Source: Amoebophrya sp. A120
Lineage: Eukaryota > Protista > Dinoflagellata
DNA length: 64,000 nucleotides
Direction: 5' to 3'
Assembly: GCA_905178155.1 (NCBI GenBank)
Contig: CAJINV010000008.1
Location: forward strand, 2,857,303-2,921,302
The notes under the pieces were generated by a model that was not told the DNA's origin, searched no databases, and saw nothing but the letters and a program-made list of their open reading frames with translations. A program made the position numbers and the translations under genes. Of this stretch, positions 1,734 to 64,000 are shown one piece after another (the stretch's first letter is position 1; each line of letters starts with the position of its first letter).

Positions 1734-3771
1734 ATGTGGTCGCGCTCGTTGCGGATGCTTCCGATCGCACTGCTGCTGCAGGGCACTTCGACGGCAGCCA
1801 CTGGCAGCTGCACCGCTAGCGAGACCATTCAGAGTGAAGTCGGCGGCTACGTGAACCAAGTCATGGCCGAGATGGTGCAGCGCGGGGCGATGTCCGTCGA
1901 TGCTGCGATATCTATGGCGGGGAAAGTGAAGAATGATACTCGTGACGGGTTGCTGACGACGCCGCAGACCGCGATGCCGTCGCCGCTTCCGTACAAAGAT
2001 GTGGCGTTTACCGCGGCCGACGTTTTGCAGGAACTAAATACCCACTACCAGCCGTCGGACTGGCGCTGTACAAAGCAGGCCAGTCTGTTCGCTTCTGGGG
2101 CGCGCCTGGTGGTTCCGCAGCTGGTCCTGGAGGATTACCTCGGCTCCCAGCTACTTCCTTCTGCGGATTTCAGCTATTTGCGTGAGCCGGAAATGTGGAC
2201 GCGCACCGTGGTGGCCGAGTGCATGATCCGGGAGGTTTTTTCGGCCGACACGATTGCCGAAGCGAAGCAAAACGCCCTGTACCTCAACTCCGAGCTGTTG
2301 ACAATGACGCGCGAGCAGTGGCTAGTGTGGGAAGCAGTGTCGGCCAGTACGCCCTTCGACGCGTCCGCTCTCACTGAAGATCTGTTTGAACACAAAATCC
2401 GCATGTATCAAGCCAAGTACGGACCGGCGTTCGAGCAAATGACTTACAAGAGCGCCATCATCACTGTGGCCTTTCGGCAAGCACATGCCCGCAGCATCGG
2501 GCTCGATACCAGTACGGACTCGGAGATGCTGTACCAAAACGTGAAGTGGGCGAGTGACGTGATGGCAACCTACGGTGGAAATGCGCCCGCGCACCTGCGC
2601 AACATCCAAGTCGGCAGATTGGTGGAGACGCTTTCGCGTGCGTCGGCTTTCACCGCCTCCGCGGACCGGCGCAGTGTATCCCTGTACAATCAAGCAAACG
2701 GAATTTCATCCTTGAAGGGGTACGAAACTTACTACGCGGCCTTGAATTCCTTCTTTATCGTCAAGTTCGCCGACTTTCTCTTCAAAACCGTGTTTGCAGC
2801 CTCCTGTCCCCACTACCAAGACTGGATCTCCACTAAATATCACTATGCATTGCAAATATCGGCTCTGGTCTGGAAACATGCAAGTTTGCGATGATCGTTC
2901 TGTGTGGCTGGACAGGAAAAATAAAAAAAGGCATGTTTTATGACAGGAGGTAAATTGGTTAGACCCATTTGTTTCTTGCCGCGCTGCAGCAGAGAGGGGA
3001 TCATTTGTCATGCCGTGACTACAGATTCACTTTTTTTTTTATGCTTTATTGCCTTTGATTTTGATAGCCGAAAAAGACGAACAACGACGACAAGGCATTG
3101 AATCTCCGATGTCATGCGGAGTAAAAATAATGAATTGCAGCGGTCTTGGAGGACGTGTGATGCTGTGCCATCATGCAATTGAGACTTCTTTGGGCATGCT
3201 GGAGTACTACAGGCAAGGCTAGCATGAATAGCGTCTGCATCGTTCCAGACCCGGAGATGTTATCCTTGCAATGCATACCTTCATTACAAACTTGATTGCG
3301 CCGCTGATCAAGAAAGGGTCTGGAGTGGAAAACTACATGTGGTTCCGTGCCATGGCGTTGGAGGCGCGCGATTTGTGGGGAGACTACACAGCCTGCGGAG
3401 ATAAACCGTCGAAGCCCCTCATCCCGAAAATCGAGCAGCTCATCAACCAGGGGCAGGTCGTTTCTGCCACAACTTCCGGAGCCGGATCATCGGGAAGTAG
3501 TGACGGCACCGACACGAATAACATGAAGGACACGGCGATCGTTATCCTCGCGGTGTGCGTCGGGGTAGCCCTCTGCGGGATCCTGTTCGGCAGCGTGGCC
3601 GTGCTGAACCTGGTGAAGCTGACACGGCAGCACGGCACCGGGCTCAGCGGTGCGTCCGGCAAATCCAGCGAAGAATCGTCTACGAATTTAGCTACTGCAA
3701 AGCCCCTGGACTGCGCGAGCCCCGACTGTGTTTTGGTGAAGTTGCCGGCCACTGGGGAGGCGAAACAATAG
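1734..3771 (+). CDS. Putative type I membrane/surface protein, ~532 aa, 2 exons (1734-2843, ~3283-3771), variant B tail
   Basis: ATG 1734 with signal-peptide-like MWSRSLRMLPIALLLQG; ORF 1554-2894 joins ORF 3271-3771 in frame after removing the TIR element; S/G/T-rich stalk then hydrophobic TM segment. Confidence 0.7.
2844..3277. mobile_element. TIR intron element, diverged family A relative
   Basis: TATGCATTGCAA...GGTCTGGAA / TTCCAGACC...TTGCAATGCATA; flanking 5-mers no longer match (atcac/ccttc) but element+5 nt removal is in frame. Confidence 0.75.
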
Positions 3772-5189
3772 TTGGACAAGATGGAGGAACAACACAGGCG
3801 AACGGGGCTGGCGTTCTCGAGTCAGCTCGTCGCGACGCGTGGTACTAATTTGTTCCTGGAACGCCTGATATGATTGTGCAATAGTAGCGCTTCTTGATCC
3901 TCTATTGCAGCTTTGTGATTTTTTTCTGCGCACTTCGTGCCGGCAGCCTATTCTCTTCTCTTAATCAGGTACTACGTTTGCAAAGGCAAGTGGATACCAG
4001 CCCGGCCTTCTTGACGAGGAGTGCGACAGTCACCACGTAGTCTCTGTCCGCTGCCGCTTTCGTTCTCAACAAGAAAGCTTTCGCATTTATATTTTTGTTT
4101 ATTCCTTCGTTTGTCCGTATGCCTACATGTAGATGTACATGCGATCTATGATAGGGGTAGCTCGTCTCAGCATAACTTTGCGTTTTTTCAAAATGGTTGA
4201 AAGTACAAACGTCGATAATAGGGTCCACGAAGCTTGGCCTTCTGTTGCATGTTCGGACTTTTTAGAAGGCTTGGAAATTTGTCATGTATAGTGTAGGCCG
4301 TCCTCCTACACTGTTATCGTTTATTCTTCAGGGTCAGATCAGTAGCTCTAGCTCCTGCTACACCTTTTATTTTTGCATGACTCTTCGCTGTAATTTCTCA
4401 TGGTCAGTTCGGTAGCATCAGCTACTCCTTCTAGTTTTACCCTCGTTTTTCTCCTCCAGGGACGCTGGGAACCTCGCCACTGATGAGTTCACCAGGGTTC
4501 TTTGAGCTATTATGGGTTTCGCTGTGCATTGTTATATTTTTCTGTGACACATCTGAGAAGGAGGAAACTTGACATGAATAGGGTTCGAGGTCGTTACTTT
4601 TTTTTTGCATCCTTGTCCCCGACGAAACATAAAAATGAACGCCAATCACACACCAAGACTCATATTATTTATAGAAAACTGCATTGCAGCTTGCCTAACG
4701 ACCGCGCAATTAGTGTCGGCGGATCAAAATAGATCGCCCCACTGCTTAGATTTGGGCCTATGCAAAAAATTGTTCTGCAGATTCTGACTCACTTGCCAGA
4801 ACAAAGCGCCACATATTTTTTATGCGCGCGAGAGAGGACGCCATGGGCTTACTGGCCCTTTCAAAGTAGCTAGTACCCTTAAAAGGTAAAGAGGGCAAAG
4901 TCTGTCAGCTGCTGTAGCTTTGTATCTGTTGCAGAGAGAAAACGTCAAAGCTGCATAAGTTTGACTCAAGCCCAGGACTTCTCCAGGACCGGCGCAACAA
5001 GATTCCGGATGCGCTACGGTCCGTGTCGCAGACTGATATGGACGCATTTGATGTGCCACTTCAATCTAAAGCTGCCTTAGGTCTTTTAGGTACAGAAGGT
5101 GCGCGTGTGTCTTTGTGTCGTGCATCAGCACTAAGTACTTGCAATACTAATACTTTGCCTTGAGGTTCGCGTCTGCCCGTGAAGACAGG

Positions 5190-7248
5190 ATGTGGTCGCG
5201 CTCGTTGCGGATGCTTCCGATCGCACTGCTGCTGCAGGGCACTTCGACGGCAGCCACTGGCAGCTGCACCGCTAGCGAGACCATTCAGAGTGAAGTCGGC
5301 GGCTACGTGAACCAAGTCATGGCCGAGATGGTGCAGCGCGGGGCGATGTCCGTCGATGCTGCGATATCTATGGCGGGGAAAGTGAAGAATGATACTCGTG
5401 ACGGGTTGCTGACGACGCCGCAGACCGCGATGCCGTCGCCGCTTCCGTACAAAGATGTGGCGTTTACCGCGGCCGACGTTTTGCAGGAACTAAATACCCA
5501 CTACCAGCCGTCGGACTGGCGCTGTACAAAGCAGGCCAGTCTGTTCGCTTCTGGGGCGCGCCTGGTGGTTCCGCAGCTGGTCCTGGAGGATTACCTCGGC
5601 TCCCAGCTACTTCCTTCTGCGGATTTCAGCTATTTGCGTGAGCCGGAAATGTGGACGCGCACCGTGGTGGCCGAGTGCATGATCCGGGAGGTTTTTTCGG
5701 CCGACACGATTGCCGAAGCGAAGCAAAACGCCCTGTACCTCAACTCCGAGCTGTTGACAATGACGCGCGAGCAGTGGCTAGTGTGGGAAGCAGTGTCGGC
5801 CAGTACGCCCTTCGACGCGTCCGCTCTCACTGAAGATCTGTTTGAACACAAAATCCGCATGTATCAAGCCAAGTACGGACCGGCGTTCGAGCAAATGACT
5901 TACAAGAGCGCCATCATCACTGTGGCCTTTCGGCAAGCACATGCCCGCAGCATCGGGCTCGATACCAGTACGGACTCGGAGATGCTGTACCAAAACGTGA
6001 AGTGGGCGAGTGACGTGATGGCAACCTACGGTGGAAATGCGCCCGCGCACCTGCGCAACATCCAAGTCGGCAGATTGGTGGAGACGCTTTCGCGTGCGTC
6101 GGCTTTCACCGCCTCCGCGGACCGGCGCAGTGTATCCCTGTACAATCAAGCAAACGGAATTTCATCCTTGAAGGGGTACGAAACTTACTACGCGGCCTTG
6201 AATTCCTTCTTTATCGTCAAGTTCGCCGACTTTCTCTTCAAAACCGTGTTTGCAGCCTCCTGTCCCCACTACCAAGACTGGATCTCCACTAAATATCACT
6301 ATGCATTGCAAATATCGGCTCTGGTCTGGAAACATGCAAGTTTGCGATGATCGTTCTGTGTGGCTGGACAGGAAAAATAAAAAAAGGCATGTTTTATGAC
6401 AGGAGGTAAATTGGTTAGACCCATTTGTTTCTTGCCGCGCTGCAGCAGAGAGGGGATCATTTGTCATGCCGTGACTACAGATTCACTTTTTTTTTTATGC
6501 TTTATTGCCTTTGATTTTGATAGCCGAAAAAGACGAACAACGACGACAAGGCATTGAATCTCCGATGTCATGCGGAGTAAAAATAATGAATTGCAGCGGT
6601 CTTGGAGGACGTGTGATGCTGTGCCATCATGCAATTGAGACTTCTTTGGGCATGCTGGAGTACTACAGGCAAGGCTAGCATGAATAGCGTCTGCATCGTT
6701 CCAGACCCGGAGATGTTATCCTTGCAATGCATACCTTCATTACAAACTTGATTGCGCCGCTGATCAAGAAAGGGTCTGGAGTGGAAAACTACATGTGGTT
6801 CCGTGCCATGGCGTTGGAGGCGCGCGATTTGTGGGGAGACTACACAGCCTGCGGAGATAAACCGTCGAAGCCCCTCATCCCGAAAATCGAGCAGCTCATC
6901 AACCAGGGGCAGGTCGTTTCTGCCACAACTTCCGGAGCCGGATCATCGGGAAGTAGTGACGGCACCGACACGAATAACATGAAGGACACGGCGATCGTTA
7001 TCCTCGCGGTGTGCGTCGGTGTAGCCCTCTTTGGGATCCTGTTCGGCAGCGTGGCCGTGTTGAACCTGGTGAAGCTCACACGGCAGCACGGCAACGGGCT
7101 CAGCGGTGCGTCCGGCAAATCCAGCGAAGAATCGTCTACGAATCTAGCTACTGCAAAGCCCCTGGACTGTGTGGGCGAGACGGTAAACCCGGACGCAGTT
7201 CTTGTGTCTATTTCGCGCGGGGAGCAGGCAAGCAAACCCATCAAGTAA
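5190..7248 (+). CDS. Second full copy of the membrane protein gene, ~539 aa, 2 exons (5190-6299, ~6739-7248), variant A tail
   Basis: Near-identical to 1734-3771 at offset 3456 bp, including the intron; C-terminal tail differs. Confidence 0.7.
6300..6733. mobile_element. TIR intron element, duplicate of 2844-3277
   Basis: Same sequence at offset 3456. Confidence 0.75.
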
Positions 7249-8707: not shown

Positions 8708-11700
8708 ATGCCCGAGCTGAAGCGCGATTCCGCGGAGCAGGCGGCGGAGGAGCCGCCGCAGAAGCTCGACTCGCCCGAAAAAAAGGCGGAATCCAGTCCA
8801 GACGGGGACATGAGCCTCGGCGATTGCGGTTCGTCGGCCAGCAAGCCCGCAGCGTTGAAGAAGCGGGAGGAGGAACACTCCGGGTGTCCTCTTGCCGAGG
8901 TGGAACTACACGGACCAGCCGCAGGGGAAGTGGTAAATGGTGCGATCATCCAGGAGTCTGCAGGATCGTCGTCTAGCGCCGCAGCCGTGCCGGCGGTCGA
9001 CGAAGTAGAAGTACAACAACCCGTGGTGAACGAAGATGAGCTCGACCAGGCGAAGATCGGTGGTGCAGTCGACGAGGACGTGACTGGCGAAGCTGCAGGA
9101 GCCGCCAGCAGCAACGAGCCGCAGTTCGTCCCAAACGACCCGGTCGGGATTACCACCACGGCGCAAGAGCAGGAAACCGGTAACAACAGTACCGTCATGA
9201 CGCCGATGTTTGGTTCCGCGGCACCCGTGGGGCACACCCCGGGCGACACCGAAAGCTTCGTCGCGTACAAGGAAACCAGCAAGGCCTCCGAGGTCGTGCA
9301 GGCAGGGAAAGAGGAGAGCGAAAGAAAAGCAGAGGAAAGCTGTCCAAAGAACGAAGTGGAGATAGAAGATGACAGCGTGATGATGGGCGAAGCAGAGGGA
9401 GTATCAAATGTAAAAATGTCTGGGTCTGGAAGATTACGAGATTTGTCATGCATATTTCGGATCACGCAAATGGCGTCTGATGCAGGCAAAAGCATCACAG
9501 GTTTTGAGCACGCCTCATGATGCCTGTCCCGCATGAGAAACTTCCTACTTGCGGGCCAAGAAATGGCCAGCTTTTGGCGCTCATGCAACACAAGATTTTG
9601 CGTGTTCCAGAGTTTGCATCACAAGTTCCAACTCTTCCAGACCCAGACATTTTTGCATTTGATAGGGAGCAGCAGCCGCTGCGGGTGCCAGCGGTGTCGA
9701 AGAAGACGAAATGGCAGACCTCCACGTGATCCATGCGGTGGATGAAAGCGCTCCCGCTGAAGCGCCGGCGAGCGGAGCGGCAGAGCTCGAGGCGGAAGAG
9801 GCGTTGCCGTCGGGAGCGGAAGGGGAGACAAAGCAGGACGAGGTGGACGACAACAATGCCATGGAGGTGGAAGAAGAAGGCCTCTCGAAAGCGGCGGAGT
9901 CGGTTGCGGTACCGGCGGACGCAGTGGCAGCGGAGGTACTTAGTGATTTTTTCCTCCACAACCTGGGTCGAGACCCTGGATTTCGTTTGCTCCGCTACAT
10001 CTTTATTCCGCAGGAGAGGACATCAACACTAGACTATTGATTCCTTCTTGGTGTATGTTGTAGCAGAGCAGCTCACGACGGCAGGGCAGATAAGATATCG
10101 AAGTACAGATGTTCTTGTGTGTACAGTGCCAGTGCAGCTGGTCAGGTTTGTCAGATGAAGGCATCATGGTTGTGATTGGTGCAACTCTTATCTCACAAAC
10201 ACAGGTGGAAGCGGCTTTTTCGGAGGACATTTCCATCATCAAGGAGGAGGAGGACGAGTTGCCCGGACAGGAGTCCGAACCCGCGGTAGCGGAAATCGTG
10301 GCCCCCGCGAAGGAACCGGAAAAACTCGCCCCGGCGACCAGCAACAAGCCGGCTGGGCTCGCGAAGTCTTCCTCCTCGGCTGCGGGCTCCTCCAGGACAC
10401 CCCGACGCGCGGAAGGGCCGCCAGCCTCCTCGATGGCGACCGGTGCGGGGGTAAAACCGGTGCAGCTTCTCGGAGCTGCTACGAAAAAGCGACCGGCCGC
10501 TGCGGAGGTCGAGCCACGATCGGCCAAGCGCGTTAAGACGGCTCCGGGGGTAGATAGTGATAGATAGATACACAAAGCTTTTTGTTGGCACTTATGTTTT
10601 TGTTCATAGTACTAGAGACGTGGTATAGATTGGAGAACTGATGCTTTGACGTGGTATCGATTGAAAAATACGCATGCCTACACCAGACCGGCCTGACACC
10701 GGCGCGGCGGGCCGAGCGGCTCGCGGCCGAGCAGGCGCGCACCAGCAAGTTTCAGGAGCAACTGTCAACGAAGCAGGAAAAGGCGGAGGAAATGCAAAAG
10801 AAGAAGGAGGACGCGAAGGCGGCGCGGGAAAAAATCAAGGAGATCGCGGATCGCATCCACTCCAACCTGAGTACAAAGCTAGTCAAGAAGAAGGGAGAGT
10901 ATGTTGTCCCCGGAGGTACAGTTGTTGAAAAATAGTTCTACTTTTCGCAATACTTTCTGTGTTAAGTTGCAGCACAGTTGTACATAGGGGCGTTTGCTGT
11001 GTGGGCCGTTCCTGCGGGTGAAGAAGCGAGCGGTTTTCGTCCGCGGGTTGTTTCACAGTTCCGAAAAGGGGGCCAAGCTCGTCCATACCGTGGGGCTTGG
11101 GCCTTGCGTGCCTCGCAGGAAATTTTCGCGCGCGCAGCGTCCGGGCGCTTGCTCTGGTGTTCACCGGGCGAGGGAAGGAGTGAGTGGCATTTTGCCGTGG
11201 GCATTTCGATTGTTCCGAAAAGGCGGCCAGGCTCGTCCATACCGTGCGGTTTGGGCCTTGCGCCGACTTCCTGTTTGGGTTGTAGCCCACGTACATACAG
11301 CAAGAGGTCGCGCCCCACGCAAAGAAAATGTGGCGCCTCTTTAGTACCCCCTAATATAGTGGTTCTACTAGGACGGGTTGGAATTACAATTATTGGAAAC
11401 AGATTGCGCGCGTATTATATATGCTGTTTTGTTTCTATTTTGCAGGAAGCGTCCAGTTCCAGGCGGAGCTGAAGGTCCTGCAGACGATGTGCCCGCCCCC
11501 GCAGGCGGAGCAGCAGACGGGAATCACCTGGACCACCACCGTGGTGAACGAGGGGGCCAAGCCGCAAACCATCCGGACCATCACGCTGACCAAGCAGGCG
11601 TGCTGCCAAATTTTCGGTACCGGGAAGATGCGGGGCGGTTCGCAGAACGTGAAGGGGGAAGTGGTGAAGATGCAGCTGGTGCACAAGCAGAAATCGAACC

Positions 11701-34100: not shown

Positions 34101-34395
34101 TACCCTAGCAGTACAGATTTTCTGAGGGCTTTCCGATGCCTATTCCGCATGACAAATGCCTTCTCAGCGGAGCAAAAATTGCCTTCCCTTTGGTACTCAT
34201 GCAATACAGATTTTTTTGGAATCCAAATGCAGCATCACAAGTTGCATTCTTCCAGACCCAGACACTTTTACAGTTGATATGGCACCGTCTGCCACGACGT
34301 CGTCCTCTTCGCCCAGATACAACAGCCAACTCACAGGAGGGAAGCGACGTGAAAACGCGAGTAGTCCCGTGCAGCGCCCGATACTGAGTGACTGA
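25102..34395 (+). CDS. Large multidomain protein (~2519 aa): Cys-rich region, cytochrome P450-like region, alpha/beta-hydrolase-like domain, multi-TM domain; 5 exons
   Basis: Exons 25102-29581, 30452-31614, 31813-32161, 32561-34017, 34285-34395 sum to 7560 nt in frame; motifs EHIR, FPNPDEFDFNR, RKCLG, LNGFPHAPQSW, LIGDSTPVGSGLAW. Confidence 0.6.
29582..30446. mobile_element. Large (865 bp) TIR intron element with internal palindromes, related to family C ends
   Basis: TATAAAAGTGCAGCATAACTCCCCCTCCCCCTCAAAAT / ATTTTGAGGGGGAGGGGGAGTTGTGCACTTGTATA; decayed TSD taaat/tcagt; in-frame removal. Confidence 0.82.
32162..32555. mobile_element. TIR intron element, family B relative
   Basis: TATGAGGTGTAAAAACGTACGCACCTCCCCA / TGGGGTGGCTACGTTTTCATTCCGGATA; TSD TGGGT. 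Confidence 0.82.
34018..34279. mobile_element. TIR intron element, family A
   Basis: TACTAAGTGCAAAAATGTCTGGGTCTGGAAGA / TCTTCCAGACCCAGACACTTTTACAGTTGATA; TSD TGGCA. Confidence 0.9.
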
Positions 34396-37300: not shown

Positions 37301-37405
37301 GAAAAATTACCTTTTCACCAGAAAATAGAAATACCACTGTACAATACCTGTTGAAAAATCAGAAGAAGCGGAGAAGAATTTTTCCAAAGGTCCTTCTCGG
37401 GTGCT

Positions 37406-49400: not shown

Positions 49401-52400
49401 GTAAAAATGTCTGGGTCTGGAAGAATACGCGATTTGTCATGCAGCTTTTCCATGACCCATGAGGTCTGGAATGCAGGACCTAGCATGACAGATTCTGTGC
49501 GATCTCTCCCATGCCTATCCTGCATGAGAAACTCCCTCCCGACTTGGTCAAAACTGGGCGACTTTTGGTAATCATGCAACACAGATTTTTGCATGCTTCA
49601 GATTTAGCATGACAAGTTGCATTCTTCCAGACCCAGACATTTTTACACTTGATAGCTTCGGAAGCTGGACCACTGCAAGACGCGCGGGGGCGTGGTGTTG
49701 CTGCAGCCGGAGAACTATCAAATGTAAAAATGTCTGGGTCTGGAAACTTGTGATGCTGGGTGGCATCTCATGATGAGGCCACAAGTGCTGGCTCAGCATG
49801 ACAAATTTCTGAGCTTGTAGGTGTTGCCTATTCTGCATGACAAACTGCGTTTCTGCATCACAGAAGAGTTGAGCTCTTCGGTAATGTGCATGACAGATTT
49901 TAGAGTTATGTCAGACAAGCATGACAAACATGCATTCTTCCAGACCCAGACATTTTTACACTTGATAAGAACCGGTACAGTGTGCAGCTGAAATTTTACG
50001 AGCTGGCGCTGGAGTGGAAGGAAGCGCGGGAAAAGTTGTTGAAGAGACAAAAGGACTTAGAAGCGGCATCTAAAATGTCGTCGGCCGAAGCCGAACGACG
50101 AGAAGTCTTGGACGACGAGGGCTTCGAAGACGCCGTGGAGGTGGATTCGAGTAACGAACAGGCGCAGATTTCTACTTTGATGCAGGATACAGTCGCCGCT
50201 ATGAAGAGAACTGTTACCGCTTTGCAGAAGGTTCTGAACTTGCCCTCCATCACGATCATCGACGAAGCGGACCAGATCTTGGCCCCGACCAACCAGAGCC
50301 TATTCTCCTACGGCAAGGGGTCGCCTCTGTCCGACCGGCAGGAACGAATTCTGGCCATCCACACCGTTTTCAAAGCAGCCACCCTGGTCGTACAACGAGA
50401 GCAGACGACCACGAAGCCGCATCATGCTGGGGCTGCGCAGCGCGCAAGAGGCAGAGCAGAAGGCATGCGCGAACAACCGATGGAAGAACAAGCGCAAGTA
50501 GGACGACCCTTGAACCAGAAGCTTGCGGATGCTGCGCGTGCGGCGTTCAAAAACTTCGAGACGGATGCAGCGAAGACGGAGTTCAAGAGAAAAGTGGTAG
50601 ACAAGCTTTTCGCACAACATGCTGCAACCCGGGAAGGCAGCGCAGCTGCAGCAGTGTCCCGCGGACCTTTCTTTTCCTTCACGAACGCGGGGACACCGAG
50701 GTTCGTCAAGTTTTTGCAGAAAGTCGGGGCTCGCGCGGACGCGACAAGAAAAGCGCTAACCGACTTTGTGCTGAACGTGACGACCTCGGAAGAAATAAGA
50801 TCTCGGCCTTTTCTTGTTGAAGAAAGGCCTCAACTTCCAGTTGTAGTCACGGACGCAGACGTTCTGTGGGGAAACGTGCTCGCGACAGCGGAAAAAACGG
50901 GCATTCTATACCGCGGTACATCCTCCTCGTCGTCTGCGGTCGAGGACCAGCCGGCGTATGACGGCGATGGGTTTGTGCAAAGCGTAATCGGTCCGCAGAT
51001 CCGGATCCGCAGAAGAGATGTGGAGGACTTCCACACATTTGCCCTCGCTCTGCGAGGTTTCGTCGGGAATGACGTTTTGGTGCACGTTTTGGCGGACATG
51101 CGTCTGAAGAAGCACTTCGGACCGCGCGGAGGAGGTGGAAAAATAACCAGGCCAGAGGACCGTGGAGATGTAGTTGGCGCAGGAGGTAGTCCTCCAGGAC
51201 GAGCAACTACTGCAGCCACGACGAACAGTAATCCGACCGAGCTCGCCGTCCCCTACACAGCGGCAAATCTCGCGTCCACAAACAGTGAATTCGCCCACCC
51301 GGACGTACAGCTGGCGTTGACCCTGCTGATGTACTACGAGGAGGGCATCAGCTTCTCGCAGTTTTCCCGTGTCTTGAAGTTTCTGATACGGAAACTACAG
51401 TCGAAGGCCAAAGTCCACGAGGACGAACATGTGCGCGACGCAGCCAAAAATTTTTTTCGCAGCCAGGAGCAGGACGTCGCGGAACGGGACCAGGAAGAGG
51501 TGAAAAATCTTTTGGACTTCGACGGCGGCGGCTGGGCGGGGGCGGTGCTGGCGCAGGGCTCGCTCCTGGACGCGCAGCAGCGCGGACGAAAAGATCAGGC
51601 ACGACAACTTTTCGAGGAGCGCAAAGCCAAAGAAGCTGAAATGGAATCACTCGCCGAAGACTTTCGGCATACCAGCCTGCAGAAGATCGTGAACGAGCCC
51701 GAGCAGTCGCGAAAGTACTGGGAGGTGCTGCAAAAGTTTCCGGATCTCATTGCGTTTTTCCTCACGTTCACGTTGAAGCACGCGAGGGACAAGTACCACT
51801 TTTCCAAACAGTTGGTGGCAAACCCGTGGGACCTGGCCGGAGATAGGTTCCGGAAAATTGAAAACGTGTTTTTGGAGGACCGAGAAGATGGGCCGCTCCT
51901 GCAAGCAGAAGTTCCGGCAACCTATTTGGTCGCAGACAATCACGTCGCGGGTTTCTCGGGCACATCCACGAACGCGAAGTTCCTACTTCCCCTCCCATTA
52001 AAAGCGGAGAACCTGCCGCAATTGGAGCACACCAACGGGAGAATTATCTCGGTTCTGAAGCAGAAAGAGGAGGACTTCAACCTGGCTGCGCTCACGGGAG
52101 CTCTCACGGGAACACTAGCAGAGCATTTCCGCCTGTCGTCGCCAAGATATTCATCCGTCCCTGGAAGCGATCATGATGCTGGTAGCAATTCAGGAGAGGA
52201 TGACTTTAGCACGCCGCGCAGCAGTCGAAGTAGCTCGCCTAGTACTTCTAGCGGTTATCACAGCAGCGGCACGTCGACCTCTTCACGTGGCCTTCTGAGT
52301 GGCTCGGCCCTTCCCACACATCTTCAAGCATTTCAGATCCACTCCAACACTGAAAGTAGCCGTGCGTCCAGCCGGTCTTCCGGGGGGTCTGCGCGACGTC

Positions 52401-55400
52401 GTGCCTCCCCAAGCAGGACCATGTTGAAGATCTTCTCCACTGCGAGCAGCGACGCAACTTCTACCAGTGAAAATAACCTACCAAGCTCTGCTCATTCGCT
52501 GCATGCGTCGACTGCGTTGAAACTTGCGCAACTTGCGACCGCGTTCCCAGAGCTTCGCGCGATCATGGACTCCGCAGGCCTGTTTGCCGGCGTTCCGAAC
52601 CGGGAAGTCGCGCGATTGATCGCCGAAAAGTTCTTTTCCGTCGAAGGTGCGGACTTCTACGGGGAACCGCAGTGCGTGCTGTTCAAGGACACAGAGGTGG
52701 TGTCTACATCATTATCACCCGCCACAGTAGATGGTGGCTTCAGCAGTGCGGGCCTTCGTGCACCGTCGAAAACATCAAGGACCAGCACATTTTTACACCA
52801 GCAAACCAATTACCTGAACGATTGGGCCGTGTACGATCACCGGCAGCACACGATAAACCGATTCGACCGCGAGGGAGCAGGTGCGGAGCAGAGCAGCGCC
52901 TCGGAGTTTTACCACCTGTACAAAGAAAATTCCGACACCGTCCCATGCTTCGTCTATTTCGACGATCGGAACAACCGCGGCGCGGACTGGCAGCTGCCGG
53001 CGAACGCGGTCGGCGCGGTTTTGTTTAACGAAATGAGCACCTTCGACCAGGTCGCCCAGGCCTCCTGGCGGTTGCGGCAGCTGGAGCTCGGGCAGAGCCT
53101 CAGGTTCGCGGCGTGGACCACTTCCACGCATCAGGAACAACGCGACGCGGGGGCGACCACGCGAGGACTGTCGTCGTTGCAGTCCGTTGACGACCTCATC
53201 CAGTTTCTCCTGGAAAAATCCGCGGTCGAGAATATGTAGAGGAAAAAGAAGTGTTGCAGTTGTGATACACATGATGTTGTTCTTCGCGCACCAGGTCAAG
53301 CAAGACAGACATTCTCTATCATACTGGATCATGATGTGCTCTGAACCCCGGGTGTACCACCCTGGTTGCATGCGTGTTTTCTCTCATGGTTATATCAGCA
53401 TTCATTTTGCAACACGTCAAGCCTCTTGACATGATGTAGATCAAGTTTATTGTGTTGCTGATGTTAGTACTAGAAAATAGAATCTCAATCCACTTTACAT
53501 CGTGTAATACTTTTTTTCTTTCATAGAGAACGAGCGGCAGTTAATCCTCTACGCGCACCAGGCCGAAACACACCTGCACATTGGGGACGACCCGGATTTC
53601 GCACTGCTCGAGGAGAGTTCGTCCGTAAGAAGCATGTATGGAAACAGTCGGAAGTCGATCGCGCTAAATGAATTTGTCGAGGCGAGTTTCAGGCGGAAAT
53701 TTTTCGGGGATGAAAATGTTCACGTTGTTGAACAAGAACCGAAAGCAACAACAGCGCAGGGACCTGGTGTTCGTCGTGATGTCGGAGGTCCAGCCACCCC
53801 TTCTTCAAGTATCTCCTGGATGGCGCGGATGTGGAAAAAGAAGTCGTCGCGGCATTACGTGGTATCAAATGTAAAAATGTCTGGGTCTGGAACAAAGCAA
53901 CTTCTCGTGCTAAATCTGAATCATGTAAAAATCTGTGTTGCATGATTGCCAAAAGCTGCCCACTTTTGACCTAATCGAGAGGCAGTTTCTCATGCAGGAT
54001 AGGCATGATAGAACGCTCGCAGAATCTGTCATGCTATGTCCTACATGCCAGACCTCATCGGTCATGGAAAACCTGCATGACAAGTCTGGCACTCTTCCAG
54101 ACTCAGACATTTTTGCAGTTGATGCGTGGCGTTGCGGGACGAAATTTTACAGAAGATCCAGAAATATGGCACGAATGTGGCAACCACTACAACCACCATT
54201 CCGGCGTCTACTACTTCGCGCCCGCACTGCAGCGCCTCAGAACATGAGCAGGCGGCTTTTATCTCCGCAGCAAACGCCTCCTGTGCGGGGGCTTTAACCG
54301 CAACGATCACCGTTGAGACGGACCATACGGCTGAAACCACCACCGAGCAGGAGGTGGACCAGGATGTGAACATGAGTGTGCAAATGTTCGTGAATCAACA
54401 CCGGCACAGCCCGCGCTACCCGTTTCCCGAAGTTGGGAACGAGTTAAAACCGTTTGTGGAAAAGGACTGGAGCTTCGAACTGGTCCGACTGAATGCAGCT
54501 CCTGCTGGTCGCCCCACGTTGGAGAAAAGCAGGACAACTAGGACGAGTACCCTCGGTAGCACGCTCCTGCTGCAAGAAGCGGAACGGGTGTTGGCGATCT
54601 TTGAGGACAAGATGCGACAAGCCAGGGACGAAGCAAGCCCTAGTAGTACCGGCACACGACCGAGTGCTGCAAGAATTGTCACTTCTCCGAAGACGAACTC
54701 GTCACCCTCCTCCCGCCCGATCGTTCGGCAGGGGCTCACGCTGCCGAAACTGGTGCCGCTCCGCGAGCTGCTGCAGGCCAAACGGGCCGAAATAAATCGT
54801 CCAAAGCTAAACTCCGCCGACTCTGACTCGAATGCGGAGGAGAGCGATGGTCGCGATCCCGCTGTGGTGCCGAGCGAGGAAACGGAACAGAAATTATTGT
54901 ACGAACAGCTTCTCAAGACCAAAACCTTGGCTCGGGTCTTCGTCACGGAAAACTTCGCGAACGTTTTCGATGTCTCGTCGGGAAATAACGCTTACGGCTC
55001 CCGGTCGAGCAGAGGACCATCGCTTGCGTCGCGGTTGTTTCGTAGATCACCAGCGGGGTCGACGTCTTCAGACGAGGACTCGGATTACACAAATGCTGCA
55101 AGAAGTATCCTCCGCCGCCCGCAGAACGCCCTGTGGCTTCCGGACGACGAAACGACAATTCTCCTGTCCGACCGCGAGGCGGCTTTGGTGCAAGAGCAGT
55201 TGTTCGAGGAAGACGCGACGAGAACCGCGGAACTGGACGAGGACAGAATTGCGGATTTCGCTGCGTTCTGGGGAAAGAAACTGAAAGTGACCGTTGTGGC
55301 TCCTAACGTGGAGGTCGCAGGGTTTGATGCTCTACTTCCCCGCGAACTACAAGAAGTAGACTGTAAGTTGGATGTGAACCGCAATTCCGCCAAGGAGATG

Positions 55401-58101
55401 AAAGCTGTCAACGGTGAAGTTGTGGATGCGGATCACCACGTTGGTGGTTCTCGTACGAGCAGCTCCGTTGGAGCTTTATTCGCCAGCATGATGAGTCCTT
55501 TCTCGTGGGCGACGACCTCCGAGGCCGACAGCGCTGCGAGCGATTCATTCGAGAGCTGCGAGGCGAAGCTGATGTTCCTTGAGAAGCAGTTCCTCGCTGC
55601 GCAAACAGTGCGGCAAACACGGAACAACGTCGCAACACAAAAATCGGGCGCCGCGGCCCTTGTCAACATCAAGCTTCAGGCTGTGCCAACTAGAAGTATC
55701 GCCGACGAAAGGGATTTGGTGGAAACCAGGCTGACGAGCAGCTTCACGAGCTTCAAAAATGCGAAGGATTTTTTGCAGAAGGTGAGCAACAGGGCCGCCT
55801 TTGAGGACGACAACGCGTTTAAAACCAGAATCGCAAGCTTTTACTCGTGGTTGCGCTCGTCATCAGAGGAGAAGCAGATCACGGAGATGAGCAGTGGCAC
55901 GGCTAGCGGGACCTCCGATGGTGCAGGAACCCTTCGTCGCGCGATTTCTGCGGCGTCATCCTCCGGAAGTAGATTCGACACCGCTTCTGCCTTCTGGAAC
56001 ACTCACTTCGCCGCGATTTCGTGGCGCGAAACGGACCCGGACGCGGACGCTGGAACAGAGGAAGAAGAGACTGTTGCGGCAAAGGAAGGAAAACCTCCTT
56101 CAACTACCTCCGGCTGGTTCTCGTGGGGCTCCTCACGTGGAGCGCACGGCAGTAGTGGGAAGAACAGCGCGACTCCCAGTGGTAAAACTAAAAACCCTTG
56201 GCACCATTGTGTCCGGAAAAAATTTGTTGACCCCACAGTGGCAAATTCGAGTTCATATTGGGCATTGCGCTCCTGGAGCCGGACATCCCTGTTCGGCGCT
56301 GGCGATGCAGCGGAGCCCCCCGCTGAGGAAGAGTTTGAGGCGTTGGAGGGCTTTGCGAAACAGTTTTTGTTTGGTTTGCCTACGACTCGTGGCGGGCCCA
56401 AAGTCGGGAGCGGCTGCGCGGCCTTCGCCGAACAGATCCACGCGAAGATGTTTTTGAACAAACAAAACGACAACGACCCGACGGAGCAGGACGCGATGAG
56501 CAAACCCAGCGACGGAGAAGATTTGACGCAAGATGAACCGAAGAAAAAACTGATGTTGAACGGAAATAAGCCCTGCCTAGGTTCCACGGACCCAGAACTC
56601 TGCGCGCGGACGAGGATTTCTGTGAAGCTGGAGTTCGACGGCCGCGTGATCCCCGGAGCCGTGTACCTCCACAATCTGCGGCCAGATCAGGTCGTGCTAT
56701 CAAATGCAAAAATGTCTGGGTCTGGAAGAATGCAAGATTTGTCATGCATATTTCTCATGACCCATGATGCCTGTAATGCATGGCCTAGCATCGCAGACTT
56801 TTAGAGGGCGTTCTGATGCACCTTCCGCGTGAAGATTTGTCATGCAGATTTCTCATGACCCATGATGCCTGTAATGCATGACCTAGCATCGCAGACTTTT
56901 AGAGGGCGTTCTGATGCACCTTCCGCATGAGAGATGCCCTGTCCCTGTAGCACAAACTGTACCCCTCTACTTGCTGGCCATGCAATACAAATTTTTTTAC
57001 AGTCCAAAAACAGCATGAAAAGTTGCAATCTTCCAGACCCATACATTTTTGCAGTTGATACGTGCAGGCGGTGTACAAGAACTGGGTTGCCGACGAGTCC
57101 GATTTGAAGTCGAGTGTGGACGAAAGAATCTACACCCCGGAGTTCCTGGACAAGATCCTCACAACTAGTACAACAGAAGATGATATCGCAAGAAAAAAGT
57201 GTTACAGTTACACATTGTGTTGCAGGCCAAGCAAGACAGACAAGCTCTGTCATGCCGGATACGCATAGAAGCCTCGTTTCATAGGTGTTTTCCCGTAGGA
57301 TTTCTACATTACAAGTTGTCTCTCTCATGCAGAGAAATTTGTGTTGCTGAATTGACTACAAACGTGTAACTGTAACACTTTTTCCGTGGGATAGATGAAG
57401 TAGACTGGCAACGTGACCGGTCCTTGTACAGACGAAGTGGCTCCTCGGGCGGCCCGGCGCCCACTAGTAGTACAACTATGAGTTCTGAGGGTAAGATTTT
57501 TCTCGTCAATTTGACCCTTGCGCAGCGCAGCCTTCGTACAAATCTAAAGGGAGCAAGAAGTGGCTCTGGTGTAGAAATTATGAGTCTGATGTCGGCATCA
57601 AGCGAGGCTTCAAGCGAGGAAAAAGCCACGGAAGAACGAGAGTCGATCGCAGGAAGTGGAAGAGCAGGACGTACGGGTGGTTCCCTGTTTTTGCCGAACC
57701 GTGGGACGACCTCCACGCGGACCGGGCAAGGGACTAACGCACTTGTCCAAAGCAGGCCTGCAGCGAAGACAGTCGTCCCAAAGTGGCTCAGAGAGTTCTG
57801 CATGAAGGGCAAGCACCACTGTCCGCAGCCGTTGCAAAGTGGCCCGGCATCTTCGCAGTACCAAACGAGCAGTTTCGTGCGAGAATTAGAGGTCCTGCGA
57901 CCTCGTGCAGCCGTGAGGATTTCGACCACGGCAACTCCCGAAGTAGGAGGGCATGGCACTTGTGCGGTGCAGAAAAACTTTTTACCTGGACCAAATAAGG
58001 GAGAGCACTTTTACCTCGGACTTGGCAGCGAAGAGCACGAGCCAACAAAGTTGTTGCCGCCGCCCGCAGTCGTGCGGGCCGTGCTGGCAATTGTAAAATG
58101 A
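37406..58101 (+). CDS. Giant (~6161 aa) DUF3638/DUF3645-like P-loop protein with N-terminal signal peptide, 9 exons
   Basis: Exons 37406-38674, 38999-44951, 45166-49392, 49660-49715, 49973-53232, 53531-53862, 54130-56697, 57066-57183, 57399-58101 sum to 18486 nt in frame; motifs QLNMGEGKTSMIIP, GGVVLLQPE, IIDEADQIL, AVPY...SEFAHPDV, GFSGT, RGADWQLP, QASWRLRQL. Confidence 0.8.
38675..38993. mobile_element. TIR intron element, diverged family A relative
   Basis: TATGCATTGCAAATATAATATGCTTGGGTC / GACCCAGACCGCATATAATTTGCATTCGATA; TSD catct/cattt. Confidence 0.8.
44952..45160. mobile_element. TIR intron element, family D
   Basis: TATCCAAGAAAAAAACTGTGTAAGTGTAAGTCT / AGACCTACACTAACACAGTTTTTTTCTTGGATA; TSD TCTGC. 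Confidence 0.92.
49393..49654. mobile_element. TIR intron element, family A, opposite orientation to 23377-23641
   Basis: Family A TIRs; TSD GCTTC; interior is the reverse complement of the 23377 copy. Confidence 0.93.
49716..49967. mobile_element. TIR intron element, family A ends with a different interior
   Basis: Family A TIRs; TSD AGAAC. Confidence 0.93.
53233..53525. mobile_element. TIR intron element, decayed family D-like
   Basis: TATGTAGAGGAAAAAGAAGTGTTGCA / TGTAATACTTTTTTTCTTTCATA; TSD GAGAA; in-frame removal. Confidence 0.8.
53863..54124. mobile_element. TIR intron element, family A
   Basis: Family A TIRs (terminal base A>G); TSD CGTGG; same subfamily and orientation as 23377. 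Confidence 0.92.
56698..57060. mobile_element. TIR intron element, family A, with internal 98-bp tandem duplication
   Basis: Family A TIRs; TSD CGTGC; the unit at 56734 repeats at 56832. Confidence 0.92.
57184..57393. mobile_element. TIR intron element, family D
   Basis: TATCGCAAGAAAAAAGTGTTACAGTTACAC / GTGTAACTGTAACACTTTTTCCGTGGGATA; TSD GATGA. Confidence 0.92.
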
Positions 58102-59433: not shown

Positions 59434-62400
59434 ATGACGACCTCTTTCTCCTCCTCCAACGCATCCGCCCTCTCGGCTCTGCTCGTCCCGGCGTCCGCGG
59501 CGGTGGGCTTCTTTCTAGGCGCATACTACGCAAAGGCCGGCGGTATCGGCTCGACGAAAACGAATAATTCCCCTACCAATGAAGAAGAGGAGAAGCAAAA
59601 TGAAGGCAAGAGTGCGCCGTCGAATTCCGGCGAAAGTACAAGCACATCGGCTTCTACACCGGGCGGAACGTCAAGCACTTCTTCTTCCTCGAATAAACTG
59701 AAAAAAACCGCCTCCTTCCAGCCGACGGCGGACAGGAATGTCGCGCTCGCCGCTGACGAGCCCGAATTAGTCCGGGGGAGAACCCTTTCGGACACGCCGT
59801 CCGTTCCCTCGATCTCAGCCCTCTCCAGGAAACCCTCGTCCGTCGCAGCCATGGACATGTTGAACCGACTAGATGAGCAAACCGCGACCGCTATCCTAAG
59901 TAAAAACTACGGGGCCCACCACAACACCGCCCCATAGTCAAGTTTAGACGCGAAGAAATCTGCTACAACTACAAGTCCAGAACCTTCGTGCTGTTCATTT
60001 CACACGTAGTGCAGTCGTGCTTGGCTGTGAAAGGAAAAGCCGCAAGACGCAACAAATTGGCCACCTTCTTGTTAATACTTTTTTTCGTTTGATGACCATG
60101 GCCGATTCTAGTACATGCATTGACATCTGTTTATTCCAAAACACGATATAGAAAATTCTCCTCATTTCTTGGCTGCGCATGAGAGACAACATCCTGGGCT
60201 GCAACATGTAGATTTGCATGGCAAATAGGGCCGCTTAGGGACGTTTTTACTGAGGATAGCCGCCATCAACGCGTTCGAGATGACGGAAGAGAAGAACCGG
60301 GAACACAGTTTTCTCCTCTACAGTCTGTACGGAATCTACTTTTACCCGGGCTACCTCTACAACCGGTTCTCCGAGCGCAAGAACCACGTCGTGAAGCTGC
60401 AGTTGCTGGCTGAGCTGCTCGGAAGAAAATACCTGGAGGCGCAAAAGTACATTGTGGAGGTGCAGGACCGCGTATCGCATTGAAATAAAGTGCACCCACG
60501 TCGAGGACCCTAGAACTTGATAGCTCCTCTTCGAGATATTGCAACGGCTTCCCACATCTACGGGAATGTTTCCAATATGTTCTTGCGAATGAGGTTGCCG
60601 GCCTCGGATTAGCAAAACGAAAAGTTTATTTCACTTGGAAGCTTTGCATCAGGATGAAATTTTGCAGCTTCCGGACTTCGACGTTGGTGCATTTTTCACT
60701 GTAACACGTTGAAACCCTTCTCGAATCCTACCGGTCCCCCAACACGAGCAAGTGGCTGAAATACGAGGCAAAGGACATACTGGACACGCGGTTGCTGTAC
60801 ACGCTGAAGAAGCTGAAGCGAAAAATGTACGGAACCGCGGCGGAGGGGGTCGATCTGGTCAACAACAATGGAGCGGGGGTAAAGCAGGAGCTGCAACCTG
60901 TTCCTCCTGTGTCTCCGAACAGCTCCCCGCTGCAGCGCACTGCGTCCACAGGGTCGGACTACAATCAGACCAAGTACAAGCCTGAAATCGTGGACGGTAC
61001 GGTCATTTCGGAAATCGCGGACGAGGTGTACCGGTTTCCCACTATGCATTGCAAATACGTTTGGGTCTGGAAGAGTGCAACTTGTGATGCTGAATTTAGA
61101 TGCTAAAAAAAACTGTATTGCATGAGCAGCAAGGGGAGTCAAATTTGGCTACGCGGAGAAGGCATTTGTCATGCGGGATGCGCATCGATAAGAGCTCAAA
61201 GAATCTGTGATGCTAAGGCATACATCACAGACATCACGAATCATGAAAAATGTGCATGACAAACTTGTCCTCTTCCAGACCCAGACATATTTGCATTTTA
61301 TACCCTCTTTGTCCAAGCAAATCTGCGACGAGTTGCTCGTCGAGATCGAGCTATTATCCTGTGCAAAAGTATCGTACTCGTACCAATTGCATTTATGCAT
61401 TACAAATCTCTTTCTCAAGGCAAATCAGCATTAGAAATTCGATTTGTAATGCTGGGCCAATTTGTAATGCAATTTATACTAATACGATGCCTTTGCAATT
61501 CATAGCTGTTTCTCGAGTGGCAGGAGAAGCAGATCCAAATGAAGAAGCCGGGCAGTCTACCAAAGTGAGAAAAGCCCCCACCCCAAAGCAAAATGGAAAT
61601 TTGTGATGCTGATTTGTGGTCACAAATCAGCTTTGTGATGCTGGACGGGAAGAGATGCGGATTGTAGTGCTGGCTGGCGCAGAAACGCCTTGCGTCTTTA
61701 GCATGACAGAAAGCAACTGGAAACGGGAAACAGCATAAGAAACTGCCTCCAAACGAGGGAACAACTGCGTCTCTTGGCCTTCTAGCAATACAAGTCCATT
61801 TGTGTACTCAAATACAGCAACACAGGTTCGGTTCGTTTCCGATATGGGGAGGGGGGATTTTTCCTCACAATACAGTCACTTGTTGAACACGAAACTCTGC
61901 GTCATCGACCACATCAACCACATCGGGCCGCACCTGCTCAACGTGTTAAAGGACGCCGTGGTCGACCCGTTGATGACGGTTTTGTACCCAGCCGTGTCGC
62001 AAAACACCACCTTCCAAGGGAAGCTGCTCGAGCCCGTGCCGAAGCTCGGCAGCACCGAGGCGAAGAAGTTTACCACGCACGAAGAACTGATGCAGACCGT
62101 GCAGAAACCCACGGACTTTCGTTACGGATTCAGCATCGGGTACGCGAACAGAAAGCGGGAAACGAAGGACTCAAGAAATATGGATGTGTCAGGTTTGAAA
62201 TCGACAAAGTTGAAATAACTTGTAATGCATAAAATCGATACCAGTTGGAAGCCCAATTTCTAAGCGGTGCATGACAAATTTCGGCACCGTCTAAATCCAG
62301 TTTGTCATGCTGTTTAGGGACAGAAGGCGTCTCTTGTCCTGCTGCTTTAGCATCTCTGTCGCAGACCCCAAACAGGCTGACAGTCGGCCTGACTTGCCAT

Positions 62401-64000
62401 CCCTGCAAGAGAGGCACTCTTTGCCTTGCATTTTATGCATGAGAAATTATTTCAACTTTGACGATTTCAATCCTGACGCATCCATAAGAAACATCTCCAG
62501 GGTCGGCCTGGACTGCCACACCGATGATTCAGAGGTACAATGTTGTGTTATGCTTACTTGTTTGATCAGCTCCTATGCTGTCAGAAAGCGGCGTTGTTTG
62601 ATGTGTCATCACGGTTGCTCAACCATCGCCTATCTTGTTGTTGAATCGCGCTTCACCGTCATCGATACGTTGTGGTGTTTCCCAGCATGATGATGGTGCG
62701 ATGCAGCTGTTGCAAGAAGAAGAAATCACAATGAAAAATCATGTAGTGGTCCAGCGGTCTGCCTTTGCGATCATGGACGTATGAATATCGTGATGTGACT
62801 CATCTGCCCTTGCCTGTGCGCGCGCCTCGCCCTTTTTTCCATCACAGGAGGATTTCCGCTTGCCGAGGCTGCCCAGGCGTGCCCAGGCTGCCCAGCGTGC
62901 TGTTGTACTACTAGAGCACACGCACGCCGTATTGTGATTCTAACGACAGGTAATGATGTGATATCGCAGCAGGGTCGTTGCGTTCAGATTATTTAGTCCC
63001 CCGGGCATGCGCCCTTTGTTTCCCTTCATCAACCATGATTTCGCGATGAAATACCAGAGAAATTTTCCGTTCCGTTCTTGTTGCGGCTTAGACCTCTTGA
63101 ATTTTTCGTCAACGCTGAAAGAATTAAAAACGATTGTGTGAGATACACAAGATGCATAGAGGGATCGATCATGCAGTAGAGCGATGAAGGGTGCTTACTA
63201 GAGATCATGACAAAAACAAGTACGAGAGCAATTTCTTTTAATTCCTGTCCCAGGTCTCCCTGACCATTCGACTGGGCAAAGAGTATTCCGTATCGCAAGG
63301 AAAAATCCCCCCTCCCCATATTGAAGAGGTAGGTTTTCGAAAATTTGTGTTGCTGATTTGAGGTCACAAATCACGTGTGTGTTGCAAGAAGACAAGGGCA
63401 GCAGCTTCCGTCCCATTATGGAGCCGGTTTGTCATGCTGTTGAGCCAACATCGCGGACGCTTTTCATGCTAAGCGCCTAAGTCAAAGCCTCTCCATTCAG
63501 GCTTGATATGGGTCTGCAGTCCTCTCCAGCAAGACAGATGCGATTCGTGTACTCAAATACTGCATCACAAATTTCGTTTTCGATATGGGGAGGGGGGATT
63601 TTTCTTTTTGATATTCCGGCGGCGCGGTCGGGCTCCGGTGGAAGGTGGGCGACGATATTGTGAGGAAAAATCCCCCCTCCCCATATTGAAAAGGTACACT
63701 TTTGGAAATTTGTGATGCTTATTTGTGGTCACAAATCGTCTCTGTCTTGCAAGGAGGCAAACCCAGAAGACTTCCCGCATTATGCCAGCGGTTTGTGATG
63801 CTGTTGGGACTACGGCATAGACTTTTGTCATGCTGACCGCCTAGGCTAAAACCTCTCCGCTCAGGCTTGCTATGGGCCTGCAGTCCTCTACTGCAAGACA
63901 AAGCTGATTCGTGTACGCAGATCCAGCATCAGAAATTTCGCTTTGATATGAGGAGGGGGGATTTTTCCTCGCAATAGACGAGAACGAGGGCCAGCTCCAA
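59434..64000 (+). CDS. OGFOD2-like 2-oxoglutarate/Fe(II) dioxygenase with N-terminal TM segment, at least 10 exons, runs off the window
   Basis: Spliced product has VYRFPTLSKQICDELLVEIELF, DPLMTVLYP, GLDCHTDDSE-VSLTIRLGKEYSGG (HxD and GG motifs); 8 TIR introns plus GT-AG intron 62535-63253. Confidence 0.78.
59892..60258. mobile_element. TIR intron element, family B
   Basis: TATCCTAAGTAAAAAC / GTTTTTACTGAGGATA; TSD accgc/gccgc. Confidence 0.85.
60473..60706. mobile_element. TIR intron element, decayed
   Basis: TATCGCATTGAAATAAAGTGCACCCACGTCGA / TCGACGTTGGTGCATTTTTCACTGTAACA; TSD decayed (ccgcg/cgttg); in-frame removal. Confidence 0.75.
61043..61302. mobile_element. TIR intron element, family A
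   Basis: TATGCATTGCAAATACGTTTGGGTCTGGAAGA / TCTTCCAGACCCAGACATATTTGCATTTTATA; TSD cccac/ccctc. Confidence 0.88.
61355..61504. mobile_element. Smallest TIR intron element (150 bp)
   Basis: TATCCTGTGCAAAAGTATCGTA / TACGATGCCTTTGCAATTCATA; TSD gctat/gctgt. Confidence 0.8.
61558..61872. mobile_element. TIR intron element, family C (left TIR decayed)
   Basis: Right end ATATGGGGAGGGGGGATTTTTCCTCACAATA; TSD CAGTC. Confidence 0.85.
62179..62486. mobile_element. TIR intron element, distinct family with 40-bp TIR
   Basis: TATGGATGTGTCAGGTTTGAAATCGACAAAGTTGAAATAA, 3 mismatches to the right end; TSD AGAAA. Confidence 0.93.
63291..63613. mobile_element. TIR intron element, family C
   Basis: TATCGCAAGGAAAAATCCCCCCTCCCCATAT / ATATGGGGAGGGGGGATTTTTCTTTTTGATA; TSD TTCCG. 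Confidence 0.9.
63656..63976. mobile_element. TIR intron element, family C
   Basis: TATTGTGAGGAAAAATCCCCCCTCCCCATAT / ATATGAGGAGGGGGGATTTTTCCTCGCAATA; TSD GACGA. Confidence 0.92.

Follow-up and report, generated by a model that had tools for sequence, protein, structure and literature searches.

Published introners of Amoebophrya sp. A120 lie in exons in either orientation and are probably cut at a fixed position beside their terminal hairpin

The introners of the marine parasitic dinoflagellate Amoebophrya sp. A120 have been described by Farhat et al. (2021; PMC7789003) as belonging to many families, with inverted repeats that start with TAT, seven variable bases and AAA, and with direct repeats of 3 to 5 nucleotides. 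According to the text of that study, 65% of the RNA-seq-supported introns of A120 were noncanonical, 83 out of 89 spliceosome proteins were found, and neither a U1 small nuclear RNA (snRNA) nor a transposase was detected; the splice position was called variable or unknown and the removal mechanism was stated to be open. A total of 58 introner families has since been listed for A120 (Gozashti 2025, PMC12130899). Here, we analysed a 64,000-bp stretch of contig CAJINV010000008.1 (assembly GCA_905178155.1, positions 2,857,303 to 2,921,302; hereafter, the window), in which 26 elements of this kind interrupt genes. Four host proteins encoded in the window, including Sec23, correspond to deposited A120 proteins that are 100% identical to its exons. 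The window is thus the A120 genome itself, and its elements are those already published, in the same organism. The system is already known; we add three testable refinements.

Two other systems are closely comparable. The nonconventional introns of euglenids share with the A120 elements an inverted repeat that joins the intron ends, direct repeats at the borders, fixed asymmetric offsets and an origin from miniature inverted-repeat transposable elements (MITEs); their reported signature is N3CDG...CH'G N5-6|R, whereas the arrangement predicted here is N-TAT...ATA-N4, with offsets of 1 and 4 (PMC12501133, PMC11282704). In Fritillaria borealis, MITE-derived introns are removed despite non-GT-AG ends, as here. 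In that species, however, AG-AC and AG-AT ends prevail and spliceosomal removal is reported (PMC11282704), whereas for A120 it is what we propose below.

Inverted-repeat elements in coding sequence

The window was scanned for segments that begin with TA, have inverted ends and are flanked by a repeat of five bases, that is, for terminal inverted repeats (TIRs) and target-site duplications (TSDs). The scan returned 20 matches, 14 of them with an exact 5-bp duplication, versus 2, 2, and 4 matches in three shuffled windows (0, 1, and 0 exact duplications, respectively). Completing the list with an end profile and by inspection brought the total to 26 elements, 150-865 bp in length, between positions 2844 and 63976, the same number as in a first-pass annotation made from the letters of the sequence. 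Its description of the ends was also borne out: elements started with TAT (24 out of 26) or TAC (2 out of 26) and ended with ATA (24 out of 26), ATG (one element), or ACA (one element), with a terminal TA at the start of all 26 and at the end of 24. The run of A that follows TAT and seven bases was missing in the elements at 62179 and 29582. The 5-bp direct repeat that the annotation had assigned to each element was present, but exact in only 16 out of the 26; the two copies agreed at four of five bases in 6 elements, at three in 1, at two in 1, and at one in 2. The elements are short, bounded by TIRs, flanked by TSDs and multicopy, as expected of MITEs, and the four open reading frames (ORFs) of the longest had no Pfam match. 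An Rfam scan of the window gave no match. Elements and host genes are listed below (aa, amino acids); no strand is assigned to the elements.

2844..3277: element in copy 1 of a tandem-repeated membrane-protein gene, TSD 1/5; deposited P0137 allows only -1/+4 or 0/+5
6300..6733: element in the second gene copy, 100% identical to 2844-3277
9402..9664: family A element, exact TSD, oriented as 49393
20302..20581: element of family B within Sec23, exact TSD; P0001 (821 aa) lacks the element plus five bases, and homologs have no extra residue
21725..21883: element in the PDI-like thioredoxin gene, TSD 4/5; Ala kept, as in the A25 ortholog, whereas Pro would result from the GC-AG placement
21954..22269: element in the PDI-like gene, TSD 4/5 (base 5 differs); Asp from the downstream copy, as in A25, which bounds the cut ahead of TSD base 5
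23377..23641: family A element, opposite to 49393; 94.7% identity to the reverse complement of 49393-49654; fold z -7.2
29582..30446: singleton of 865 bp, TSD 3/5, containing palindromic repeats; four ORFs, no Pfam match
32162..32555: element with family-B-like ends, exact TSD
34018..34279: family A element, TAC start, exact TSD
38675..38993: first of eight elements in the 6161-aa DUF3638/DUF3645 gene, TSD 4/5 (window scan)
44952..45160: family E element, exact TSD
49393..49654: reference copy of family A, interrupting the DUF3638 domain, exact TSD; fold z -10.6
49716..49967: family A-related element, exact TSD
53233..53525: element, exact TSD (window scan)
53863..54124: family A element, opposite to 49393, ends ATG
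56698..57060: family A element with internal duplication, exact TSD
57184..57393: family E element, exact TSD
59892..60258: first of eight elements in the P0121 gene, TSD 4/5 (base 1 differs); upstream copy retained
60473..60706: decayed element, TSD 2/5, ends ACA; allows cuts -2/+3, -1/+4, 0/+5
61043..61302: family A element, opposite to 49393, TSD 4/5 (base 4 differs); upstream copy retained
61355..61504: 150-bp family D element, TSD 4/5 (the difference is synonymous; deposited protein comparison)
61558..61872: family C element, TAC start, exact TSD (deposited protein comparison)
62179..62486: family F element, exact TSD, ends without A run (deposited protein comparison)
63291..63613: family C element, exact TSD (deposited protein comparison)
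63656..63976: family C element, exact TSD (deposited protein comparison)
18074..20824, + strand: host gene Sec23 (A120 CAD7958275.1), exon 100% identical to the deposited protein
21516..23702, + strand: host gene of the PDI-like thioredoxin protein CAD7958277.1, three elements and two GT-AG introns
37406..58101, + strand: host gene, 6161 aa, DUF3638/DUF3645, eight elements
59434..64000, + strand: host gene P0121 (CAD7958293.1), with eight elements and one GT-AG intron in the window

All 26 elements sit in + strand coding sequence. Those at 2844 and 6300 are 100% identical and represent a single insertion copied by tandem gene duplication, which leaves 25 independent insertions; with a coding share of 0.71, the chance of all 25 being coding is 1.6e-4. 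The claim that the elements are confined to coding DNA thus holds for this class in the window, but it is not strict elsewhere, as the wider sample described below indicates.

Removal of an element plus five bases restored the frame in 26 out of 26 cases, as the first-pass annotation had proposed, and the 6161-aa gene then contained no internal stop. When retained, the element introduced a stop in 22 out of the 22 cases read in the gene's own frame (49716, 61558, 63291, and 63656, read in another frame, are excluded). Among the 156 placements compatible with exact removal (26 × 6), none offered GT-AG, in agreement with the earlier sliding of the junctions, and one offered GC-AG (21725); the GT/GC...AG ends of canonical U2 introns do not characterize these elements. 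Seven canonical GT-AG introns, one of them near 10550, were counted in the window, the figure previously set against the 26 elements. Overall, these results support the view that MITE-like insertions are removed as noncanonical introns. The elements are real and already known, being published A120 introners, as had been suspected with reference to Farhat et al.; they are non-autonomous inverted-repeat transposons that have inserted into exons both ways round and are flanked by a 5-bp target duplication.

For a wider sample, one TIR pattern was used, which yielded at least 138 loci (L001-L138, 581 kb) on contigs JACKZZ01* of another assembly, all selected for family A. These loci hold the window's families at up to 96% identity, with up to at least 160 matches per family. 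A scanner blind to TSDs identified 391 distinct elements with a median length of 262 bp, of which 291 had an exact 5-bp TSD, 61 a TSD conserved at 4 out of 5 bases, and none a 6-bp TSD; no clear sequence preference was seen at the insertion target. Element lengths were evenly distributed modulo 3 (96/89/83), as counted from a first greedy pairing of 414 pairs that mispaired some neighbouring elements. Flanks were coding-like for 275 out of 328 copies versus 241 out of 567 background positions, with a classifier that reached 93% on training exons and gave 16% false positives, and we estimate that about one locus copy in eight lies outside coding DNA. Host strand was confidently assigned for 208 out of 325 copies; positions 11-13 were A in 202-207 of these 208, partly by scanner design. 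In a six-frame test, removal of the element plus five bases opened a frame in 118 out of 283 cases, plus two bases in 119, and plus eight bases in 113, versus 41-56 for other offsets; as these three offsets open alike, the test fixes only the length modulo 3. The element-masked window had no match among the 138 loci except via a Mutator-like element described below, so no ortholog was available for presence/absence comparison. One of the loci (L048:2900-7300) carries a PseB/FlaA1-like UDP-GlcNAc dehydratase gene with about 10 elements and several others missed by the scanner.

Position of the cut and symmetry of the signal

When the repeat is exact, any of six placements of the intron yields an identical mRNA, and the cut can be placed only from repeats that have decayed. 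Removing the element plus five bases reproduced the four deposited proteins at 13 out of 13 junctions, and none of these junctions lay at the ordinary GT/GC-AG sites that the first-pass annotation had named as the competing outcome. The sole cut compatible with all 13 falls one base before and four bases after the element (-1/+4). Indeed, the upstream TSD copy was needed through base 4 at 2844, 21725, and 61043, and the downstream copy was needed at base 5 at 21954; the A25 ortholog agrees with the residues retained at two of these sites (Ala at 21725 and Asp at 21954). In the PseB-like gene (L048:5513), the Met-His-Gly-Gly of 2gn4, a homolog of solved structure, was best fitted by upstream base 1 together with downstream base 5. 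The junction at L010:5809 was ambiguous. The deposited models also lack elements whose TSDs have decayed to 1/5 or 2/5, a point against both template switching and excision by microhomology. A GC-AG pair at 21725 and an in-frame GT-AG pair at 23377 (-1/+1) were available and are unused in these models.

In the -1/+4 register, all 26 introns begin with NT, and the T and A of the element occupy positions +2 and +3; of the seven canonical donors in the window, six start with GTA. Deposited models and conservation together make it likely that the cut is made one base before and four bases after the terminal hairpin, without GT-AG signals. The earlier notion of splice-site-independent removal holds insofar as neither GT nor AG is required, but it was too strong for a single register with T and A at +2 and +3. 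At the 865-bp element, we observed that downstream TSD bases 1-4 read TCAG (29582-30451), so that a CAG falls right at the 3' cut predicted here, as though a canonical acceptor had been acquired by an old element; this is a single case.

Both orientations were found in genes of the same strand. The element at 23377 and that at 49393, to whose reverse complement it is nearly identical, both interrupt + strand genes, family A is split 5 versus 3 in the window, and the splits in five locus families were 27/48, 9/10, 4/8, 13/12, and 8/3 (oriented copies), with a mild bias in family A (p 0.02). The long terminal stem (about 45 bp) was predicted to fold in both orientations (z of -10.6 for 49393 and -7.2 for 23377). 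Intron position +1 was G in 68 out of 208 oriented copies and the 3' end was AG in 18 out of 208, both at background. Since both orientations occur and neither G nor AG is enriched, the removal signal must reside in whatever part of the element is symmetric. The 3' TTGAT was considered as a branch point; it suits family A but fails for elements ending in AGGAT or TGCAT.

Possible routes of removal

Our preferred explanation, which we regard as modestly probable, is removal by a relaxed spliceosome that has ceased to check which base opens the intron and whether AG closes it. It is favoured by the NTA starts in the -1/+4 register, by T at +2 in A25, and by the nearly complete spliceosome. In Table S4 of Farhat et al., the 9 predominant classes of A120 all start with NT- and the 9 of A25 all start with TT-; the A25 repeats begin with TTA and are unrelated to those of A120 (PMC7789003). 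A precedent for such a spliceosome has been reviewed for Fritillaria (PMC11282704). In this scheme, an integrase-type DDE transposase of the IS3EU/GingerRoot/Ginger clan would mobilise all families by binding the TA(T/C) ends and a shared internal motif. The transcript would be cut between TSD bases 4 and 5, giving an intron of N + element + NNNN, in which the element's TA would supply U at donor +2 and A at +3; the terminal stem would bring the intron ends together, and the 3' cut would be measured four bases past the terminal ATA. With the same signal at both ends on opposite strands, either orientation would work, one TSD copy would be left, and the gene would be restored. Introns that work backward would be unusual, because spliceosomal introns are polar.

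Several points weigh against this explanation. The junctions derive from deposited gene models and conservation, and the upper bound of the register comes from two cases, 21954 (model and conservation) and L048 (conservation alone). At L078:8299, 1 out of the 23 mismatched junctions, the downstream base was favoured at position 4, as judged by eye, and a mixture of 0/+5 and other cuts may be compatible with the data. A codon-model test of the exonic TSD copy gave no signal (15/31 and 7/15), and an AT-drift test of the same copy was uninformative. Splice-site counts in Table S4 and in Gozashti (2025) can reflect the choice of the aligner within the repeat. As the TA ends are dictated by the transposase, the match to +2U/+3A may also be due to chance (about one register in six). 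Moreover, the stem of about 45 bp would enclose the donor, we saw no branch-point motif shared by every family, and TSDs that have decayed do not drift toward G at +1 (5 gains or retentions versus 7). Finally, no transposase was found: a Pfam search of 163 locus frames of at least 220 aa returned host domains only.

The main rival, kept strong by the buried donor and the lack of any need for polarity, is a dedicated, spliceosome-independent RNA machine of the kind put forward for euglenids, which would recognise the stem, cut one base before and four after it, and ligate; we hold this to be possible, although on the unlikely side. Orientation independence, strong terminal stems in both orientations, the absence of dinucleotide preference at either cut, and the U1 snRNA undetected in A120 (PMC7789003) are all consistent with it. 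Likewise, the cuts of Euglena introns lie at constant, unequal distances (3 and 5-6 bases) from the inverted repeat (PMC12501133), and the excised introns reportedly form circles and no lariat (PMC11282704). However, T is found at +2 in both A120 and A25 despite their unrelated repeats, the Euglena signature is absent, old elements with imperfect stems (60473 and 21725) are still removed in the deposited models, and there is no candidate enzyme.

The other explanations appear far less probable. Excision of DNA during part of the life cycle, as with the internal eliminated sequences (IESs) of ciliates, or a polymorphism in which transcripts come from empty alleles, would suit ends bounded by TA, exact restoration of the target, and the presence of elements in essential genes (Sec23, and Rpb1 at L054). 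We consider it very unlikely, as the elements are assembled in place in A120, the same families occur in genes of the contigs behind L001-L138, and a symmetric process would not be expected to cut asymmetrically, at a constant position, with respect to the strand of the transcript. TA-IES excision differs from what is seen here, where both terminal TAs are removed, and this also counts against excision. Even smaller is the probability that the introns are reverse-transcriptase template-switch artefacts in genes that are inactive or read through: a hairpin with direct repeats is a known setting for such artefacts and the published support for A120 introns, as reported, consists of short-read cDNA, but despite the 22 out of 22 stops on retention, the downstream exons are open and conserved (Sec23, PDI, and the 6161-aa gene), the element plus five bases is removed from the models even at 1/5 or 2/5 repeats, and coding sequence is preferred by the elements, not avoided. 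Ordinary splicing at nearby GT/GC-AG sites, with a few codons gained or lost, seems the least probable of all. An in-frame GT-AG pair lies within 20 bases of 18 out of the 26 elements, but 8 out of the 26 have no such pair, and these sites are unused at 13 out of 13 deposited junctions, including those at 23377 and 21725.

Internal motif, mobilising enzyme and neighbouring features

An 8-base motif, TGT[ACG][AT]TGC or its reverse, was present in 86 copies in the 8.1 kb of window elements (23 out of 26 elements), versus 5 copies in the exons (39 kb) and 5 in the remaining DNA (16 kb). In the loci, 346 out of 349 element copies contained it, with the first copy 30-45 bases from each end and a modal spacing of 31; the motif was chosen from the window and the loci contain the same families, so they provide no independent discovery set. 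Private mutations were rarer in the motif (45/2256) and in the terminal three bases (4/444, p 4e-4) than in the interior (380/10041 cells), in a pool from which families E and E2 were dropped (4 and 5 copies) and A and A2 excluded for search bias. Conservation of the motif and of the terminal bases is suggestive, with an interior rate inflated by alignment error. The motif may be a subterminal repeat bound by the transposase.

The first-pass annotation had regarded the mobilising enzyme as unresolved. No transposase was found here, but an A120 family of similar description is known: family 38 (PMC12130899) is a TIR DNA introner of about 808 bp assigned to Ginger, with a 5-bp TSD and TA/TA termini like those of the window elements, the comparison being one of descriptions. 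It carries ORFs resembling those of LTR elements (Copia/Gypsy-like), unlike the 865-bp window element, whose four ORFs had no Pfam match. On the basis of family 38, an integrase-like enzyme is the probable mobiliser. The TA..TA termini of IS3EU/GingerRoot are also those of the window elements, although their TSD is usually 6 bp (PMC10045372) as against 0 out of 391 elements with 6 bp and 291 out of 391 with 5 bp here. As the termini fit but the TSD does not, we did not file the elements under IS3EU/GingerRoot. Ginger2/TDD termini are of the TG..CA type, from which the TA..TA elements of the window differ; the TSD of 4-5 bp described for Ginger2/TDD is matched by their 5 bp.

Longer copies with a transposase, which had been suggested as a target for searching, did not appear among the loci: six elements of 481-1148 bp contained short frames only and looked, by eye, like internal expansions. 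A 972-bp family A copy with an exact TSD (L054:5001-5972) abuts an RNA polymerase Rpb1-family frame. Two TIR patterns gave 0 matches against viral contigs. One pattern searched against prokaryote genomes gave a single 20-base match with neither a partner end nor the internal motif, which was judged to be due to chance.

More tentatively, and with the odds against it, the elements might reveal an additional splicing route, blind to sequence, that takes its distances (1 base before, 4 after) from a hairpin in the RNA and scarlessly removes tens of thousands of insertions in either orientation. Exons would then be a safe haven for a new integrase-like branch with 5-bp TSDs and TA ends, and the motif spaced by about 31 bases would be read by the transposase or the excising machine. 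We found nothing on element orientation, on a register that is fixed, or on any internal motif in the text and supplementary text of Farhat et al. (PMC7789003), whose Fig. 3 and S19-S23 may show the register; in the literature searched, as far as its text was available, orientation independence, a fixed register, tolerance of decayed repeats, and the internal motif were not found. The fixed -1/+4 cut, the use of both orientations, and the independence from direct repeats are concrete predictions for the open removal mechanism, and the TA..TA/5-bp TSD signature with the shared motif provides a search image for the missing transposase.

Other insertions were also observed. A 612-bp TIR element of another class (23702-24313), with GG..CC ends and an exact 9-bp TSD, lies at the stop codon of the PDI-like gene, with GT near its left end and AG just beyond its right end; a relative with an 8/9 duplication is present in L043, and the element resembles the Mutator-type A120 family 65 as described by Gozashti (2025, PMC12130899). 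Within a GT-AG intron, the segment 10981-11360 has inverted ends that are short and imperfect and contains a direct repeat of 51 bp, with no 5-bp TSD and no relative in the 138 loci.

Positions 1-8230 form a tandem array with a period of about 3.46-3.48 kb, carrying a gene for a 532-aa protein with a predicted N-terminal signal and a C-terminal membrane segment. This protein had no Pfam match and its only relatives were A120 records; the element in its gene is older than the duplication. Finally, the longest of the seven canonical introns, a 719-bp GT-AG intron at 62535-63253, possibly holds a decayed insertion.

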